A DNA stretch of 64,000 nucleotides from an uncultured Candidatus Actinomarina sp. GTDB lineage: Bacteria; Actinomycetota; Acidimicrobiia; Actinomarinales; Actinomarinaceae. Location: assembly GCA_902593795.1 (NCBI GenBank), contig CACJJR010000001.1, positions 196,647-260,646 of the forward strand. The letters run 5' to 3'. Positions 5,310-54,214 of the stretch are shown here, one piece after another (within the stretch, counting starts at the first letter, position 1; every line of letters begins with the position of its first letter). The position numbers were made by a program, and so were the translations under genes. The notes beneath the pieces are model-generated. The model searched no databases. It worked only from the letters and a program-made list of their open reading frames with translations, and was not told where the DNA came from.

Positions 5310-5387
5310 TGGTGGGCCTAGTTAGATTTGAACTAACGACCTCATCCTTATCAGGGATGCGCTCTAACCAGGCTGAGCTATAGGCCC
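5310..5387 (-). tRNA. tRNA-Ile (anticodon GAT)
   Basis: Reverse complement folds as GGGCCTA acceptor, anticodon loop CTGATAA, TTCAAAT T-loop, CCA encoded. Confidence 0.85.
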
Positions 5388-5475
5388 ATATGTCTAATTA
5401 ACATTAGTCTATCAATAGAAATATTTAATTTTTTTTTTCATTTACTGTAATATTCTGTGCATAATATTAATGCGA

Positions 5476-5548
5476 GGGGATGTAGCTCAGCTGGAAGAGC
5501 ACCTGCTTTGCAAGCAGGGGGTCGTGGGTTCAAGTCCCATCATCTCCA
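5476..5548 (+). tRNA. tRNA-Ala (anticodon TGC)
   Basis: GGGGATG acceptor with G3:U70 Ala identity pair, anticodon loop TTTGCAA, T-loop TTCAAGT; CCA not encoded. Confidence 0.85.
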
Positions 5549-5568
5549 CAACAAGCTAACCTAAATAT

Positions 5569-13839: not shown

Positions 13840-13870
13840 TGTTATATATTAGATAGATAAATTATTAATG

Positions 13871-13959
13871 CGGAGGGGGTGGGATTTGAACTCAGGGAGT
13901 CTATAGAGACTCACGACATTTCGAGTGTCGCGCACTAGACCGGACTATGCGACCCCTCC
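13871..13959 (-). tRNA. tRNA-Ser (anticodon CGA)
   Basis: Reverse complement: GGAGGGG acceptor, anticodon loop CTCGAAA, long variable arm, TTCAAAT T-loop. Confidence 0.8.
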
Positions 13960-13979
13960 AGATGTGTATTATTAACATT

Positions 13980-14438
13980 ATGGATTATAAGACTGATGAA
14001 AAAAAGATGAAAGTTGCGCTTGAACAAGCAAATTTAGCTTTTGATAAAAACGAGGTACCTGTTGGCGCAGCAATATTTGATAGCAACAATAATTTGATTT
14101 GTGCAAATCATAATCGTAGAGAAGTTGATAATAACCCAACAGCTCATGCTGAAATACTCGTATTGCAAGAGGCAGCACAAATATTAGGTAGTTGGCGGCT
14201 TGAAAACACAACACTTGCAGTTACGTTGGAACCAGATGCGATGTGTGCTGGTGCAATAGTCATTGCAAGAATAAAGAAACTTATATACGGGGCAGCTAAT
14301 TTAAAAGCCGGTGCAGCATATTCACTTTACAATATTCCACAAGATGCTCGTCTTAACCACCATGTCGATATAAAAGATAATATTCTCTCCCATGAATCCG
14401 AAGCTATATTATCCTCTTTCTTTGACAGCAAGAGATAA
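13980..14438 (+). CDS. tadA: tRNA-specific adenosine-34 deaminase
   Basis: CDA-fold HAE zinc motif and (P-D-A-M-C-A-G-A) second motif; start moved to first ATG clear of the tRNA. Confidence 0.8.
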   Translation: MDYKTDEKKMKVALEQANLAFDKNEVPVGAAIFDSNNNLICANHNRREVDNNPTAHAEILVLQEAAQILGSWRLENTTLAVTLEPDAMCAGAIVIARIKKLIYGAANLKAGAAYSLYNIPQDARLNHHVDIKDNILSHESEAILSSFFDSKR

Positions 14439-14464
14439 CTAAAATAGAATCTCAGGTTTTTTTC

Positions 14465-14553
14465 GGAGGGATCGCATAGTCTGGCCTAGTGCGCACGCTT
14501 GGAAAGCGTGTAAGGGTTTATCCCCTTCGAGGGTTCGAATCCCTCTCCCTCCG
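14465..14553 (+). tRNA. tRNA-Ser (anticodon GGA)
   Basis: GGAGGGA acceptor, anticodon loop TTGGAAA, long variable arm, GAGGG/CCCTC T-stem. Confidence 0.85.
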
Positions 14554-14574
14554 CAAAAAAAAAAGAAGACATCT

Positions 14575-14660
14575 GGAGGGATGGCCGAGCGGACGAAGGC
14601 GATAGTCTTGAAAACTATTGTATGTATTCCATACCGTGGGTTCGAATCCCACTCCCTCCG
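14575..14660 (+). tRNA. tRNA-Ser (anticodon TGA)
   Basis: GGAGGGA acceptor, anticodon loop CTTGAAA, long variable arm. Confidence 0.85.
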
Positions 14661-14667
14661 CTGACTT

Positions 14668-14757
14668 GGAGAGGTGACTGAGTGGCCTAAAGTGCTCGCC
14701 TGCTAAGCGAGTGGGGAAGAAATTCCCTCGAGGGTTCGAATCCCTCCCTCTCCGCCA
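14668..14757 (+). tRNA. tRNA-Ser (anticodon GCT)
   Basis: GGAGAGG acceptor, anticodon loop CTGCTAA, long variable arm, CCA encoded. Confidence 0.85.
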
Positions 14758-14758
14758 T

Positions 14759-14832
14759 GCGCCTGTAGCTTAACTGGATAGAGCATCTGATTACGGATCA
14801 GAAGGTTGGGGGTTCGACTCCCTCCAGGCGTG
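14759..14832 (+). tRNA. tRNA-Arg (anticodon ACG)
   Basis: GCGCCTG acceptor, anticodon loop TTACGGA, 5-nt variable loop; begins 1 nt after the previous tRNA. Confidence 0.85.
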
Positions 14833-14843
14833 CTTATAATCTT

Positions 14844-32990: not shown

Positions 32991-33027
32991 TCAACTCCTT
33001 TAACTTTTTATATGATACTATTTAGTT

Positions 33028-33264
33028 ATGGAAATCAAACTTGAATTTTGTGTAGTTTGAAACTACACACCTCGTGCAGTTGGCACGATTGAAGACGTTT
33101 TAGAAATATATGGAAATAAAGTTACTTCTATTAATTTGATTCCAAGCGGTGGTGGAGTATTTGAATTTCATTTAAATGAAAAATTATTATTTTCAAAAAA
33201 AGAACTTGGAAGACACTCTGATGATGGAGAAATACTAAAACTAATCGAAGAAGAAGTTGGTTGA
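33028..33264 (+). CDS. selW: SelW-like (Rdx family) selenoprotein, in-frame UGA=Sec at 33058..33060
   Basis: MEIKLEFCVV-U-NYTPRAVG: CxxU redox motif; downstream LIPSGGGVFEF...FSKKELGRH matches bacterial SelW-like PGSGG.FE..WSKK..GRFP; 67 stop-free codons after the TGA. Confidence 0.8.
33072..33088 (+). promoter_or_regulatory. bacterial SECIS-like hairpin for the SelW-like gene
   Basis: 17-nt stem-loop tCGTGC-AGTTG-GCACGa beginning exactly 11 nt after UGA, GU in apical loop; fits the E. coli fdhF minimal SECIS geometry. Confidence 0.55.
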
Positions 33265-33995
33265 GTTTTCCATTTGATTTAACTTTTATAGAAGTAACTT
33301 TTATTGCAATATTACTTTTTATCAGCTCCTCAGTTCAAGGTGTTCTAGGTTTTGGCTTTGCGGTCATTGCTTCACCAATCATCATCCAAATCGAGCCTTA
33401 TCTTGTCCCCCAGTTGCTTTCTTTATTGGGATTGCCATTGGCAATTAGAGTTTTTTACAGAGAAAAAGACCAAGTTGACTTTTCTAAGGTTAAGCCACTT
33501 ATATTAGGTCGACTAATAGGCGGACCAATTGGACTTTTATTTCTGTTGAATCTACCTCAAAGATATCTTTCAATCTCTGTAGGTTTTATAGTATTTATAG
33601 CTGGCGTAGGCTCTTTTTTTGGTTGGGTCATAAATAGGAATAATGTAAATTCTTTTTTAGCAGGAACTTTTTCTGGTATTTTTGGAATGATTGCTGCAAT
33701 TGGGGGTCCCCCAGTTGCTTTACTATATAGAAATACCAAATCGCAAGAATTCAGACCATCACTAAACAGTGTATTTAGTATAGGAATTTTAATTACGCTA
33801 TCACTTTTAATCTTTAGCGGTAACTTATTATTGGACCATATAATACTTTTTCTTCTATTCATTCCATTTGTATTGGCCGGAATTAGATTTTCTAGTTCTC
33901 TTTTTTCCAAAGTATCTGATAACTTTATTGCGCAGTCAGTAACTTATTTTTCAATTATTTCTGGTCTTTATGTTATTTTGAGAAACATAAATTAG
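33261..33995 (+). CDS. TSUP/TauE-SafE (DUF81) family membrane transporter
   Basis: Two-repeat 4TM architecture with GxGxxxxP motifs (VLGFGFAVIASP; IAAIGGPPVALL); start overlaps SelW-like stop (GTTGA). Confidence 0.7.
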   Translation: MSFPFDLTFIEVTFIAILLFISSSVQGVLGFGFAVIASPIIIQIEPYLVPQLLSLLGLPLAIRVFYREKDQVDFSKVKPLILGRLIGGPIGLLFLLNLPQRYLSISVGFIVFIAGVGSFFGWVINRNNVNSFLAGTFSGIFGMIAAIGGPPVALLYRNTKSQEFRPSLNSVFSIGILITLSLLIFSGNLLLDHIILFLLFIPFVLAGIRFSSSLFSKVSDNFIAQSVTYFSIISGLYVILRNIN

Positions 33996-47938: not shown

Positions 47939-48688
47939 ATGAATAATCAGAACTATTTGAAAGCAGAAAAGTTTTTTGAAGTACCTGTAATGATTTCGGT
48001 TCTTATGTTAATCCCAGTGTTAATAATTGAATATACACAGCAATCTCTCAGCACAGTTGCTTTGTATTTGAACTGGGGAATTTGGATAGTTTTCTTACTG
48101 GAGTACGTAATTTTATTCTATTTTGCAGAAGATAAAATGAGATTTGTTAAAAGCCATAAAATTGAATTAATTATTGTAATTTTTTCATTTCCAATTGTGC
48201 CTGAGGGCTTGGAGTCATCTGGTTTTCTAAGGTTTGCTCGATTGCCTAGATTATTAAATGCATTAAGATTTTTTAGACTTGCAGCTTTACTAAGCAGGTT
48301 CGGAACAACTGTTAAATCAATCTTTAATTCAAAAGGGTTAAGATTTATTGTGTATGCAACGATTGCTATTGTTTTATTCTTTGGATTTCTCTTTTATATT
48401 TCTGAACCAGATGTTCAATCATATAGTGACGGATTGTGGTGGGCACTCGTAACAATAACTACCGTTGGATATGGAGATATTACTCCACTTACAAATCTTG
48501 GACGAATAATTGCAAGCTCTTTGATGATTATGGGCATCGGGTTTATTGCAACAATTACAGCTGCTGTATCTTCTTATTTTATTTCTAGCTTTAACGACAA
48601 AGAACTTACAATTAATGAACTAGGTGATAAGTTAGATAAACTAGAAGAAGAAATAAAAAGCTTAAAAAAGGAAATCAATGAGAAATAA
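47939..48688 (+). CDS. voltage-gated potassium channel (6TM, Kv-like)
   Basis: Selectivity filter TTVGYGD; S4-like helix with Arg every third residue (RFARLPRLLNALRFFRL). Confidence 0.8.
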   Translation: MNNQNYLKAEKFFEVPVMISVLMLIPVLIIEYTQQSLSTVALYLNWGIWIVFLLEYVILFYFAEDKMRFVKSHKIELIIVIFSFPIVPEGLESSGFLRFARLPRLLNALRFFRLAALLSRFGTTVKSIFNSKGLRFIVYATIAIVLFFGFLFYISEPDVQSYSDGLWWALVTITTVGYGDITPLTNLGRIIASSLMIMGIGFIATITAAVSSYFISSFNDKELTINELGDKLDKLEEEIKSLKKEINEK

Positions 48689-50369
48689 CGAATTGCAACA
48701 GCTCTCAAGTGACTTTTTTCAAAACTCTCTAGACTCTTCTCCTACATCAGCAATCATGAGAGGTCACAAGCAATATTTTGATCAAATAGAAGAGATGACT
48801 GATGAAACTTTTAAAAAAGAAACAAAAAAAGTAAATGATTTTATTTCAAGGCTTGAAGGCATAAACCCAGAATCTTTATCAAATAGAGAAAAAGTTACTC
48901 ATGGGATGTTGGAGTTTGCTTTAAGTTCTAACAAAGATTCTTTGTTAGATAGGAGCTGGGAGTTTGGAGCTGGCGTCTCTGGCTTCACAGGATTTCTTAT
49001 TGATTATAACCAACAAATGTTTGTTCCAGATTCAGAATCTGCTGATATGTTGTTAAAAAGACTTGAACTTTATAAAAGACTTTATACACAGATCGCAGAA
49101 GTACAAAAAATCGGCTTAAACAATAACAGGGTAGCTACAGAACGAAATTTACTTAGAACAATTGATCAATTGGAAAATTATTTGGGTTCATCGCTGGAAG
49201 ATGATCCACTATTACTAATTAATTTTTCACCAGAAATTTCAGAATCTTTTATATCTGATTGGAAAGAAAAAGCTAAAAAAATTATAGATGTAAGCATAAG
49301 GCCTACAGTATTAGCTTATTTAGATCAATTAAAAACAGAACACATTCCTAAAGGACGTACAGATGAGCATTCTGGAATAATGTGGATTGAGGGCGGGGAA
49401 GAGACGTATTTAAGAGCATTAAGAAAATACACAGGTCACAAAGATATAACTGTACAAGAAGTTCATAATGTAGGACTTTCTGAAATAGATAGGCTAAAAA
49501 AAGAATTTTTTGAGATTGGAGAAAATGTATTTCCTGGAGTCAGCACTCCAGAAGAAGTCTTACAAAAAATGCAAACAGAGCCTTCAATGAGATATGAAAG
49601 CAAAGAGCAGATGTTACAGTTAGCTGTTGATACTATTGAACGAGCATATAAACCCTTAGAAGAGTGGTTTACAGTATTTCCAAAATCTCCTTGCAAGGTC
49701 TTGCCAGTGCCAGCTGAGTCTGAACAGCATGCTCCACCTGCATATTATTACCCACCTTTACCTGATGGTTCAAGGGATGGGACATATTTTCTTAACACTT
49801 ACAAAGCAGAAACAAAAAGTATTTTTGAAGCAGAATCTGTAGCTTTTCATGAGGCGATACCAGGTCATCACCTTGATAGAACTATTGCAGTTGAGCTACA
49901 AGATGTACCAGACTTTCAAAAGTATGTAGCTTCAACAGCATTTGTTGAGGGCTGGGGACTTTATTCAGAGCAATTAGCTAATGAAATGGGCCTTTATTCC
50001 AATGATGTTCAACAGCTAGGAAGACTTGGAAATGATGCATGGAGAGCTTGTCGTCTTGTTCTTGATACAGGAATGCATGGAATGGGCTGGTCAAGAGACA
50101 AAGCAATTAAGTTTTTCAAAGCAAATTCTCCAATTGAAGCTATAAATGCAGAAATTGAGACCGACAGATATATTGCCTGGCCTGGACAAGCATGTTCATA
50201 TAAAATGGGCCAATTGAAGATTGAAGAACTACGAAGAAAAGCTGAAAATGAACTAGGTGATAAGTTTGATATTAGGTATTTTCATGATGAAGTCTTATGC
50301 GATGGGGGAATAACGCTTCCAATTTTAGAAAATAAGATTGATACATTTATTGCAAAGCATAAAAGCTAA
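48678..50369 (+). CDS. DUF885-family putative metallopeptidase
   Basis: HEAIPGHH zinc-binding-like motif in a ~560-aa protein typical of DUF885. Confidence 0.65.
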   Translation: MRNNELQQLSSDFFQNSLDSSPTSAIMRGHKQYFDQIEEMTDETFKKETKKVNDFISRLEGINPESLSNREKVTHGMLEFALSSNKDSLLDRSWEFGAGVSGFTGFLIDYNQQMFVPDSESADMLLKRLELYKRLYTQIAEVQKIGLNNNRVATERNLLRTIDQLENYLGSSLEDDPLLLINFSPEISESFISDWKEKAKKIIDVSIRPTVLAYLDQLKTEHIPKGRTDEHSGIMWIEGGEETYLRALRKYTGHKDITVQEVHNVGLSEIDRLKKEFFEIGENVFPGVSTPEEVLQKMQTEPSMRYESKEQMLQLAVDTIERAYKPLEEWFTVFPKSPCKVLPVPAESEQHAPPAYYYPPLPDGSRDGTYFLNTYKAETKSIFEAESVAFHEAIPGHHLDRTIAVELQDVPDFQKYVASTAFVEGWGLYSEQLANEMGLYSNDVQQLGRLGNDAWRACRLVLDTGMHGMGWSRDKAIKFFKANSPIEAINAEIETDRYIAWPGQACSYKMGQLKIEELRRKAENELGDKFDIRYFHDEVLCDGGITLPILENKIDTFIAKHKS

Positions 50370-52413: not shown

Positions 52414-54214
52414 CTTCTATGACTTCACCTTCTACCACGTCATCGGATTCACTTGAAGACGGATCAGGAGTATCATTTTGTGTCTCTGAATATAACTTTT
52501 CAGCAAATGATTGACTAGCTTTAGAAAGCTCTTCAATAGCAACCTTGAGATCATTAACTTCGTTATCTTCATTTTCTAAGAGTTTCTTTAGATTTTCATT
52601 TGCATCAGTAATTGATTTAATCTCATCATCAGTTGCTTTATCTTTGTTGTCTTCCAACATTTTTTCTGTTGAAGTAACCATTCCTTCAGCCATATTTCTT
52701 GTCTCGACAAGATCTTTCTTTTTTGCATCTTCATTTGCATGTTGTTCTGCATCTTTTATCATTCGGTCTATCTCATCGTCTTCTAAAGCAGTTCCACCAG
52801 TAATTGTTATTGCTTGCTCCTTACCAGTGCCAAGGTCTTTAGCATTTACATTGACAATTCCATTTGCATCAATATCAAAAGTTACCTCTATTTGAGGTGT
52901 ACCAGCCATTGCTGCAGGAATATCGGTTAATGTGAATCTACCCAAAGATTTGTTACCAGAGGCCATATCTCTTTCACCTTGCAAGATGTGTATTTCAACC
53001 TGAGTTTGATTGTTTTCAGCAGTACTAAATACTTCTGACCTCTTAGTTGGAATAGTAGTATTTCTTTCGATCATCTTTGTCATGATTCCACCTTTTGTTT
53101 CAACACCAAGTGTAAGTGGAGTGACATCAAGTAAAAGAACATCCTTTACATCACCTTTAAGAACGCCAGCTTGTATGGCAGCACCAGAAGCAACCACTTC
53201 GTCTGGGTTGACACCTTTATGAGGATCTTTACCAGTTAAAGCTTTAACAAGCTCTTGCACTGATGGCATTCTTGTAGAACCACCAACTAATATTATGTGA
53301 TTTATATCTGAAAATTTCATTCCAGCATCAGACAAAGCATTTTCAACAGGTGCTTTTGTACGCTCTACTAAATCAGCTGTAATTTTTTCAAATTCAGACC
53401 TACTTAACTTTTCTAATAAATGTTGGGGACCAGCATCGTTAGCAGTAATGAAAGGTAAATTAATTTCTGTTTCACTAGTCGAAGAAAGTTCAATTTTTGC
53501 TTTCTCTGCACCTTCCTGAATTCTCTGGATAGCCATTTTGTCTTTTGATAAATCAATACCTGTTGATGATTTAAATTTATCAATTAACCAGTCCATAACT
53601 CTCTGATCCCAGTCATCACCACCTAGTTTTGAATCACCAGAGGTTGACTTTACCTCAAAGACTCCTTCAGAAATTTCCAGAATAGAAACATCGAATGTAC
53701 CACCACCCAGATCAAATACTAAAATTTTTTGATCTTGATTATTTTCTAAACCATACGCAAGTGATGCAGCTGTAGGTTCGTTAATGATTCTTAATACGTT
53801 TAATCCAGCTATCTGACCTGCTTCTTTAGTCGCTTGTCTTTCTGCGTCATTAAAATATGCAGGCACAGTAATAACAGCTTCAGTAACGTCATCTCCTAAG
53901 TATGCTTCAGCATCCCTTTTTAATTTTTGAAGTATTCTTGCTGATATTTCTTGTGGAGTATAATCTTTCCCTTCAAAGCTTTCTTTCCAATCAGTTCCGA
54001 TGTGTCTTTTAATTGATCTTATGGTGTTATCAGGATTTGTTATTGCTTGTCTTTTTGCAAGCTCTCCAACCAGTACTTCTTCAGACTTGAAAGCAACTAT
54101 GGATGGAGTCGTCCTATTTCCCTCTGCATTCGCAATTACAGTTGGTTCGCCGCCTTCTAATACTGCAACAACACTATTTGTTGTTCCTAAATCAATTCCT
54201 ACAGCTTTTCCCAT
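52406..54214 (-). CDS. dnaK: molecular chaperone DnaK (Hsp70)
   Basis: [29 protein letters not shown] Hsp70 signatures. Confidence 0.95.

Follow-up and report, generated by a model that had tools for sequence, protein, structure and literature searches.

The minimal SECIS of Escherichia coli fdhF, as a review summarizes it (Liu et al. 1998 via PMC8659212), is a 17-nt upper stem-loop that spans nt 15-31 and lies 11 nt from the UGA codon; U17 bulges out of its 5′ strand, and the loop carries G23/U24. The Zhang and Gladyshev model of the bacterial SECIS (bSECIS), in the outline given by PMC13188914, calls for an apical loop of 3-9 nt, an upper stem of 4-16 bp, a G within the first two loop positions that is usually followed by G or U, a distance of 16-37 nt from UGA to the apical loop, and an MFE of -7.5 kcal/mol or lower. 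SelW-like proteins, with 48 genes, rank first in abundance among the selenoprotein families of the Sargasso Sea data (PMC1088965). For Actinomarina, a preprint has reported selC, selA, selD and a divergent selB in 84 of 84 complete genomes, with about five predicted selenoproteins per genome; the commonest selenoprotein family is 78 aa long and labelled 'uncharacterized', and the Rfam models used there gave no SECIS in Actinomarina (bioRxiv 10.64898/2026.04.03.716425).

Here we describe a SelW-like gene of an uncultured Candidatus Actinomarina sp., located in a window of 64,000 nt, which is the whole stretch of DNA that was analyzed. The initial annotation had proposed a two-hairpin recoding signal at this gene, with one hairpin (hairpin 1, H1) holding the UGA codon in its loop and a second one (hairpin 2, H2) downstream. 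Counted from the U of UGA, H2 occupies nt 15-31, and the likeness to the 11-nt/17-nt geometry of the minimal fdhF SECIS holds in this respect, as far as that element is laid out in the review (PMC8659212).

A SelW-like gene with an in-frame UGA codon

The gene extends on the forward strand from ATG 33028 to TGA 33262-33264 (33028-33264) and comprises 78 codons, and its translation places an in-frame UGA (33058-33060) at codon 11. When UGA is read as U, the product starts with MEIKLEFCVV-U-NYTPRAV and is predicted in full to be MEIKLEFCVV-U-NYTPRAVGTIEDVLEIYGNKVTSINLIPSGGGVFEFHLNEKLLFSKKELGRHSDDGEILKLIEEEVG, in which C8-V-V-U11 represents the N-terminal CxxU redox motif. Using a query in which U was replaced by C, we found matches to the Pfam Rdx model PF10262 (E = 2.6e-15; 56.8 bits, cut-off 22.6) and to NCBIfam TIGR02174 'SelT/SelW/SelH family' (45.1 bits, cut-off 34.2). 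Both scores exceed the curated cut-offs for membership of the Rdx family, which supports the earlier designation of the gene around the UGA as SelW-like. In the alignment to the Rdx models, UGA falls on the second redox residue of CxxC/U.

A genome scan with one genome per species detected 570 relatives, from which 80 loci were retrieved. The 31 closest loci belong to Ca. Actinomarina/Actinomarinales (OCS155), and the remaining ones to Marinimicrobia/Fidelibacterota, Gemmatimonadota, Chloroflexota, Firmicutes and others. All 80 loci, from several phyla, carry the CxxU motif with an in-frame TGA at its second position and a coding sequence that stays intact downstream. The 31 Actinomarinales species genomes were found via protein similarity alone; together with a metagenome scan, these species loci gave a pooled set of 147 genes with 96 distinct sequences, of which the 5′ region is represented by 66-68 distinct sequences. 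Several AACY GOS contigs were among the orthologues retrieved. The reading frame past UGA is conserved throughout, in the 80 loci as well as in the 96 distinct gene sequences.

TGA also serves as an ordinary stop in this DNA, where it ends 8 of the 54 long ORFs in the window, the SelW-like gene included. The public protein entries for the SelW-like gene are 84 aa long and show W at both TGAs. Because these entries also translate through the terminal TGA, they are an artefact of gene calls with code 4 on short contigs, and the wrong-code translations can now be corrected.

Within the sequences compared, the gene family and the conservation of UGA are evident. As the explanation of the whole locus, we think it fairly probable that 33028-33264 encodes a small SelW-like (Rdx) thiol/selenol oxidoreductase in which the UGA at codon 11 (33058-33060, forward strand) is decoded as selenocysteine, with H2 as the signal and H1 not required. 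Neither tRNA-Sec nor SelB was found within the 64-kb window, nor was a selD-like motif. The 78-aa 'uncharacterized' family of the preprint is probably the same gene, in which case the most widespread selenoprotein of Actinomarina can thereby be named as a SelW-like (Rdx) protein.

The region upstream of the gene contains an extended -10-like element, TGATACTAT (TGnTAnnAT; 33013-33021, forward strand), which ends 6 nt before the ATG. Among the upstream regions of orthologues, 66 of which are distinct, its positions T33013, T33016, A33017, A33020 and T33021 never vary, and a simple -35/-10 scan did not flag the element at 33013-33021. No Shine-Dalgarno sequence precedes ATG 33028. From this arrangement we infer a candidate promoter for a leaderless transcript starting at or near A33028; in such a transcript the distance to the 5′ end would be 21 nt for H1 and 30 nt for UGA. 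Downstream lies a gene for a TauE/SafE-family membrane protein (33261-33995, forward strand; Pfam PF01925, E = 1.4e-19). Its TTG start codon and the stop codon of the SelW-like gene share bases (TTGA), so the two genes are probably organized in one operon and translationally coupled. This overlap was found in 31 of 31 Actinomarinales species loci and in none from other phyla. On the other side, a divergent M3 peptidase gene is located upstream, and the divergent intergenic region spans 37 bp.

The downstream hairpin as a bacterial SECIS

The sequence around the UGA codon is composed of TGTGTAGTT (33049-33057), TGA (33058-33060), AACTACACA (33061-33069), CC, TCGTGC (33072-33077), AGTTG (33078-33082) and GCACGA (33083-33088). 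RNAfold of 33040-33100 returned exactly two hairpins, with the MFE structure equal to the centroid; the energy is -17.9 kcal/mol (z = -3.15), a value that was not reached in 200 dinucleotide shuffles. The coordinates given earlier are right: a perfect stem of nine Watson-Crick pairs closes on UGA, its 3-nt loop, and 11 nt after UGA comes a hairpin of 17 nt. The latter, H2 (33072-33088, forward strand), consists of a 6-bp stem (33072-77/33083-88) and the loop AGUUG (33078-82). The folding does not sequester this 17-nt element, as its probability P(H2) was 0.97-0.99 in every context tried. H1 was considered as an insulator of SECIS folding and rejected, since P(H2) kept these values with or without H1.

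H2 is placed inside the ORF just 3′ of a UGA at the second redox position, as the bSECIS model has it. Its 5-nt loop and 6-bp stem are both within the size ranges, the loop A-G-U-U-G/A carries G-U at loop positions 2-3, and the distance from UGA to the loop is 17 nt (33061-33077). The MFE of H2 in the window is -8.5 kcal/mol; many orthologues with G-U pairs reach -6.5 to -6.7 kcal/mol, weaker than the cut-off of -7.5.

All cells (100%) of the H2 stem are paired in the 66-68 distinct orthologues, the metagenomic part of which was retrieved with a search pattern that preset codons 16-18 and some positions of the codons on either side, the loop AGUU included. The closing pair, which links the third base of the Pro15 codon with the first base of the Ile/Val/Leu21 codon, is UA in 47, CG in 17, GC in 1 and UG in 1 of the 66 orthologues. 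Two other pairs alternate, one between GU (44) and GC (22) and one between GC (64) and GU (2). The three Watson-Crick types of closing pair recur in the 31 genomes that were found by protein similarity alone, and the loop AGUU is invariant in these genomes. RNAalifold retained H2 as the only helix of its consensus. The compensatory changes that the initial annotation had proposed to seek in orthologues are therefore present in H2, as U-A, C-G and G-C at its closing pair. The 6-bp helix reappeared in just 0.055% of the resamples in which the peptide was recoded synonymously, and the codons that form H2 are rare ones (CGT, 7% of Arg; ACG, 5% of Thr; GGC, 14% of Gly). The full pairing, the covarying closing pair and the RNAalifold consensus agree with the reading of the 17-nt hairpin 11 nt past UGA as a SECIS, and from sequence comparison we regard H2 as a well-supported, genuine bacterial SECIS.

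Rfam searches at the SelW locus, with gathering thresholds and by E-value, returned only chance matches (E > 2). To our knowledge, Rfam apparently holds no bacterial SECIS model. The sole other match to this type of SECIS in the window, at 54088, is antisense to a 602-aa ORF, and about 150 Actinomarinales loci contained only three non-SelW matches, all implausible. H2 defines a SECIS that the preprint's Rfam models missed in one of the most abundant marine bacteria, and its layout (6-bp stem, AGUUR loop, 11 nt past UGA) may serve as a template for annotating other selenoprotein genes of Actinomarina.

The binding of SelB to H2 and the geometry of decoding can be proposed by analogy with established SelB/SECIS biology. 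With UGA in the A site, the 11-nt spacer would lie within the mRNA channel and H2 at the channel entrance; the ribosome tunnel covers about 11 nt of mRNA (PMC4513850). The loop A-G-U-U-G and the 6-bp stem would bind SelB carrying GTP and Sec-tRNASec, and SelB, competing with RF2, would deliver Sec. During decoding itself, the 5′ arm of H1 would be in the E/P sites, its 3′ arm would account for 9 of the 11 spacer nucleotides, and H1 would be melted. With both arms inside the ribosome, H1 would hence not be part of the structure that SelB meets at decoding.

The hairpin enclosing the UGA codon

H1 (33049-33069, forward strand) is a perfect 9-bp stem (33049-57/33061-69) whose 3-nt loop is the Sec codon. 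Its arms encode Cys-Val-Val (TGT GTA GTT) and Asn-Tyr-Thr (AAC TAC ACA); the family shows little or no variation at Cys, Asn and Tyr, while Val, Val and Thr are lineage-specific. A perfect 9-bp hairpin alone is not rare in this AT-rich window, where Markov-1 simulations yield 3.7 +/- 1.9 of them with loops of 3-8 nt and we counted 11, two of which have a 3-nt loop against 0.67 expected. What is non-random is the centring of H1 on the Sec codon and its recurrence in orthologues.

Among the 31 Actinomarinales species, H1 has 9 bp in 15, 8 bp in five and 7 bp in eight, that is at least 7 bp in 28 of 31. L026 and L027 harbor a weak 5-bp remnant (-1.6 to -2.7 kcal/mol), and L025, in which the motif reads CITUNYT, has no H1; UGA and H2 are kept in all three. 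H1 also reaches only -2.9 kcal/mol in an ATT-type Cys-Ile-Val clade (11 sequences of the 147-gene pool). Across 66 orthologues 93.4% of the H1 cells are paired, and four pairs vary by mismatch only. The breaks affect mostly the terminal pairs through synonymous variants, namely the loop-closing U-A pair in 18 and the outer U-A pair in 10 of the 66. The sole compensatory pair results from a change of GTA/TAC to ATA/TAT (GC 56, AU 7, GU 1, other 2), which appears from its distribution to be essentially a single event, and H1 is missing from the RNAalifold consensus.

Outside Actinomarinales, a stem enclosing UGA is absent in most loci. It was found in 5 of 43 loci from other phyla against 1.5 expected when the arms were permuted (P ~0.01), and one of the five, from a Firmicute, is built from TGC/GCA instead of TGT/ACA. 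L201, an unrelated AT-rich lineage with CVVUNYE, has a 6-bp core of H1 beside a SECIS of the family type.

A bipartite signal would have H1 compensated and retained wherever UGA and the SECIS are, and by this test H1 fails. The proposal of a two-hairpin recoding signal is accordingly upheld in part: both hairpins exist and the 17-nt one is a SECIS with covariation, but the upstream hairpin does not stand as a required part, since RNAalifold drops it, four of its pairs vary by mismatch only, three of the 31 Actinomarinales species show it weakened or not at all although they retain UGA and the SECIS, the same is true of it in most other phyla, and it is largely predicted by the codons of the peptide. 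Covariation of the upstream stem in homologous genes, likewise anticipated, came down to one compensatory pair.

How far the peptide accounts for H1 can be seen from synonymous resamples drawn with the codon usage of the window, 8% of which gave 9 bp including G-U pairs and 33% at least 7 contiguous bp. The energy of H1 in the window ranks in the top 0.7% of these resamples, and nine Watson-Crick pairs arose in only 0.36%; the rank is this high because the minority codons AAC (25%) and TAC (26%) are used. In 32 synonymous variants of the arms, the folding probability of H2 showed no significant correlation with H1 (Spearman -0.19).

The codons of H1 are conserved at the nucleotide level. Third-position changes are about 3-fold rarer at H1 codons than in codons 23-78, codon identity between deep clades is 0.77 at H1 codons vs 0.52 in the rest of the gene, and AAC and TAC at H1 require 3-4 Fitch steps, compared with 7-11 for the other Asn/Tyr codons of the gene. 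The same suppression of synonymous change is seen at codons 2-7, which are in neither hairpin, and low synonymous change runs from the gene start through the SECIS (codons 2-22). L025 retains AAC-TAC-ACA without the complementary arm. Because codons 2-7 are equally suppressed and the arm of L025 has no partner, the low synonymous rate is not creditable to H1. The promoter of the divergent M3 peptidase gene was examined as a cause of this 5′ codon conservation and discarded, as the conservation persists in L025-L031, where this neighbour is absent.

The folding predictions present H1 as a real and stable helix in the free mRNA, which would be formed mainly by the lineage-specific Val, Val and Thr codons complementing the family-invariant Asn, Tyr and Cys codons. 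We lean toward the interpretation that a codon-palindromic peptide gives rise to H1 essentially as a by-product, or that H1 is at most a modulator that can be dispensed with. In the genomes compared, UGA and the SECIS are kept where H1 has been lost, which makes H1 dispensable for their retention at the level of these sequences. A codon-palindromic peptide can thus yield a striking hairpin with no need of a function.

A tentative alternative, to which we give perhaps a third of the weight of the by-product reading or somewhat more, is that H1 is a selected accessory of a bipartite signal, located 21 nt from a leaderless 5′ end, where it would slow the first ribosome or tune early elongation so that, although only 10 codons precede UGA, synthesis and folding of the SECIS and its loading with SelB are complete when the ribosome arrives there. 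The -10-like box 6 nt before an ATG that lacks a Shine-Dalgarno sequence fits such a leaderless start, and the retention of H1 with at least 7 bp in 28 of 31 species, its energy in the top 0.7% of synonymous resamples and its one compensatory pair fit selection on the stem. The maintenance of AAC and TAC while the other Asn/Tyr codons of the gene drift points the same way, but codons 2-7 outside both hairpins are equally suppressed, and AAC-TAC-ACA persists in L025 without its partner arm. The excess of UGA-enclosing stems in other phyla and the recurrence in L201 also favour this alternative. Against it, most SelW-like genes have no H1, RNAalifold rejects H1, its compensation is essentially a single event, and it has been weakened or lost at least three times with UGA and the SECIS kept.

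A more specific version, which we hold to be somewhat less likely still, is that H1 is a helix particular to selenoprotein mRNAs with UGA near a leaderless 5′ end, guarding the codon and the spacer until SelB is loaded. H1 would then time the first ribosome, or would limit termination by RF2 on mRNAs whose SECIS lacks SelB, and the three-fold synonymous suppression in codons 2-22 would mark one integrated initiation-plus-recoding module. Should H1 indeed tune Sec decoding, bacterial recoding would gain a new accessory feature.

The 21-bp palindrome might also act in the DNA of the divergent promoter region, for instance as an operator to which a dimeric regulator binds, with the overlap with the Sec codon being coincidental. 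The perfect 9-3-9 inverted repeat about 21 bp past the putative transcription start, near the 37-bp divergent intergenic region, would suit this role. We consider it very improbable, however, since the repeat is centred to the nucleotide on UGA and made of in-frame complementary codons, persists in genomes of the L025-L031 type that have another upstream neighbour, and includes variants that create G-U pairs in RNA (AAT in nine sequences, ACG in three), which are mismatches in DNA.

Slightly less credible still is a long, fdhF-like SECIS in which the 5′ 36 nt including UGA pair 3′ of the apical hairpin as a lower stem. This structure is in fact the MFE of 33028-33130 (-22.9 kcal/mol, z = -2.26), with UGA paired in the lower stem and H2 at the apex, and P(H1) drops to 0.15 in this context. 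The lower helices, however, are only 64-80% paired in 68 orthologues, with many pairs broken in a third to half of the sequences; they are not recovered by RNAalifold, and folding of the whole gene restores the two-hairpin form. Two other pairings were set aside as well. The pairing UCAAAC (33035-40)/GUUUGA (33055-60), which was spotted by eye, is destroyed in the L011 clade (ATAAAATTA), and a pseudoknot of the loop AGUU with the AACU just past UGA was judged sterically unlikely, as a single nucleotide would be left to span a helix of 4 bp.

The least plausible reading, that UGA is a true stop (leaving a pseudogene or a 10-residue peptide) or has been reassigned to Trp or Gly, draws on the W in database entries, but these entries read past the terminal TGA too, which is the mark of code 4, TGA terminates 8 of 54 long ORFs in the window, in the Rdx models the position corresponds to the second redox residue of CxxC/U, the frame beyond UGA is kept in 80 loci and 96 distinct gene sequences, and Sec machinery is reported for the genus.

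Relation to known SECIS systems

H2 shares its position (nt 15-31) and the G-U dinucleotide of the loop with the E. coli fdhF mini-SECIS, in the form in which the review presents the latter (PMC8659212). By the same account, H2 differs in having no bulged U17, in carrying G-U at nt 22-23 instead of 23-24, one position earlier, and in its build of 6 bp and a 5-nt loop, compared with 5 bp plus a bulge and a 6-nt loop in fdhF. The partner protein is different as well, as the SelB of Actinomarina is reported to be divergent (bioRxiv 10.64898/2026.04.03.716425). With the bSECIS consensus, H2 has in common an in-ORF hairpin 3′ of UGA, a 5-nt loop with GU, a 6-bp upper stem and a 17-nt distance; it belongs to the short, weak end of the model and is devoid of a lower stem.

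The SelW-like genes from the Sargasso Sea and GOS data (PMC1088965, PMC2398784) are of the same family and have the CxxU motif. Because the drawings in these papers start after UGA, showing only the sequence 3′ of it, an upstream arm is invisible there, and they assigned the genes neither to Actinomarina as host nor to an operon with TauE (PMC1088965, PMC2398784).

The SECIS elements of SelW-like genes in Marinimicrobia/Fidelibacterota, Gemmatimonadota, Chloroflexota and Firmicutes are found at the homologous position, within the conserved PRAxxxx segment. They have a 5-nt loop with G-U (GGUCU or AGUUU) and covary strongly, with one helix pair occurring as CG 28, GC 6, AU 6, GU 3 and UA 2 and another as CG 20, UG 16 and UA 13. 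In contrast to Actinomarinales, their stems are longer and GC-richer, there is usually no UGA-enclosing stem, and their register is displaced by 4 nt in the 3′ direction (loop at +22..+26 vs +18..+22). Given this 4-nt shift between homologous helices, the SECIS of Actinomarinales has been moved to a new register inside the conserved PRAV(G/S)T(I/V) segment, and a coding-region SECIS can on this evidence shift its register by 4 nt inside a conserved peptide.

In eukaryotes, a Sec redefinition element (SRE) beside some UGA-Sec codons was reportedly described by Howard and colleagues in 2005. Like H1, the SRE is a coding-region hairpin near the Sec codon and additional to the SECIS. It is located downstream of UGA, however, and works with a SECIS in the 3′UTR, whereas H1 encloses UGA and must unwind first, and the two are not homologous. 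Set against these systems, the upstream helix is an unproven accessory, and H2 is an element of known type in a new host.

SECIS register and the UGA-enclosing stem

In the SelW-like genes of other phyla (loci L032-L080), the SECIS lies in the region UGA +18 to +30, shifted by 4 nt in the 3′ direction relative to that of Actinomarinales (33072-33088 in the window), and carries the loops GGUCU or AGUUU with strong covariation. The SECIS was re-registered inside a conserved peptide segment. A distant AT-rich relative with 49% identity and the motif CVVUNYE (L201, 505-744) retains the GUAGUU/AACUAC core around the UGA alongside the family-type SECIS register. Thus, the UGA-enclosing stem (33049-33069) is independent of the Actinomarinales SECIS shift. 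One low-coverage metagenome contig (L203, 95-352) carries a variant of the gene with a different N-terminus, MIDVTLEYCMSU..., led by a Shine-Dalgarno sequence; the UGA-enclosing stem is absent here, while the SECIS and the downstream gene are identical. This variant may represent a recombinant or a chimeric assembly.

Elsewhere in the window, a 563-aa ORF (48678-50369) contains a hairpin at 48927-48949, TCTAACAAAG-ATT-CTTTGTTAGA, whose stem of 10 bp is perfect and whose loop is 3 nt long.

The 5′ end of the SelW-like gene

Synonymous change is suppressed about three-fold across the whole 5′ end of the SelW-like gene (codons 2-22, 33031-33093), including codons 2-7, which lie outside both hairpins. 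The low synonymous change at this end is kept in loci with a different upstream neighbour. The region just upstream (33013-33027) contains no Shine-Dalgarno sequence ahead of the ATG but harbors a conserved, extended -10-like box, TGATACTAT, ending 6 nt upstream of the ATG, which was not picked up by a simple promoter scan. The SelW-like mRNA is probably leaderless.

Gene neighbourhood

The SelW-like gene is followed by a gene encoding a TauE/SafE-family membrane protein (33261-33995), whose TTG start overlaps the SelW-like stop codon (33262-33264) in the sequence TTGA. Since this 4-nt overlap is found in 31/31 Actinomarinales species loci but in 0/49 loci of other phyla, the arrangement suggests a lineage-specific SelW-TauE operon that would be translationally coupled.

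Two tRNA arrangements were also observed in the window. Four tRNA-Ser genes (cga, gga, tga and gct) and one tRNA-Arg gene are located inside 1 kb (13870-14833). A divergent tRNA-Ile/tRNA-Ala pair occurs at 5310-5549, and the window contains no rRNA gene close to it.

Database and preprint annotations

In public databases, the SelW-like gene is entered as an 84-aa product (P0001-P0079) in which both the Sec UGA and the terminal UGA are read as Trp. The entries stem from gene calling with code 4 on short contigs and are therefore mis-annotated. K07090 is a TauE-type family. The third predicted selenoprotein group of a recent preprint is 'K07090' (bioRxiv 10.64898/2026.04.03.716425), which may correspond to the TauE-family gene next to the SelW-like gene. 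This selenoprotein prediction could be an artefact, because in-frame TGAs at 33222 and 33177 are located shortly upstream of the TauE frame. The top Actinomarina selenoprotein family by abundance in the same preprint, described as '78 aa, uncharacterized' (bioRxiv 10.64898/2026.04.03.716425), is very probably the Rdx/SelW-like gene of the window (33028-33264, forward strand).
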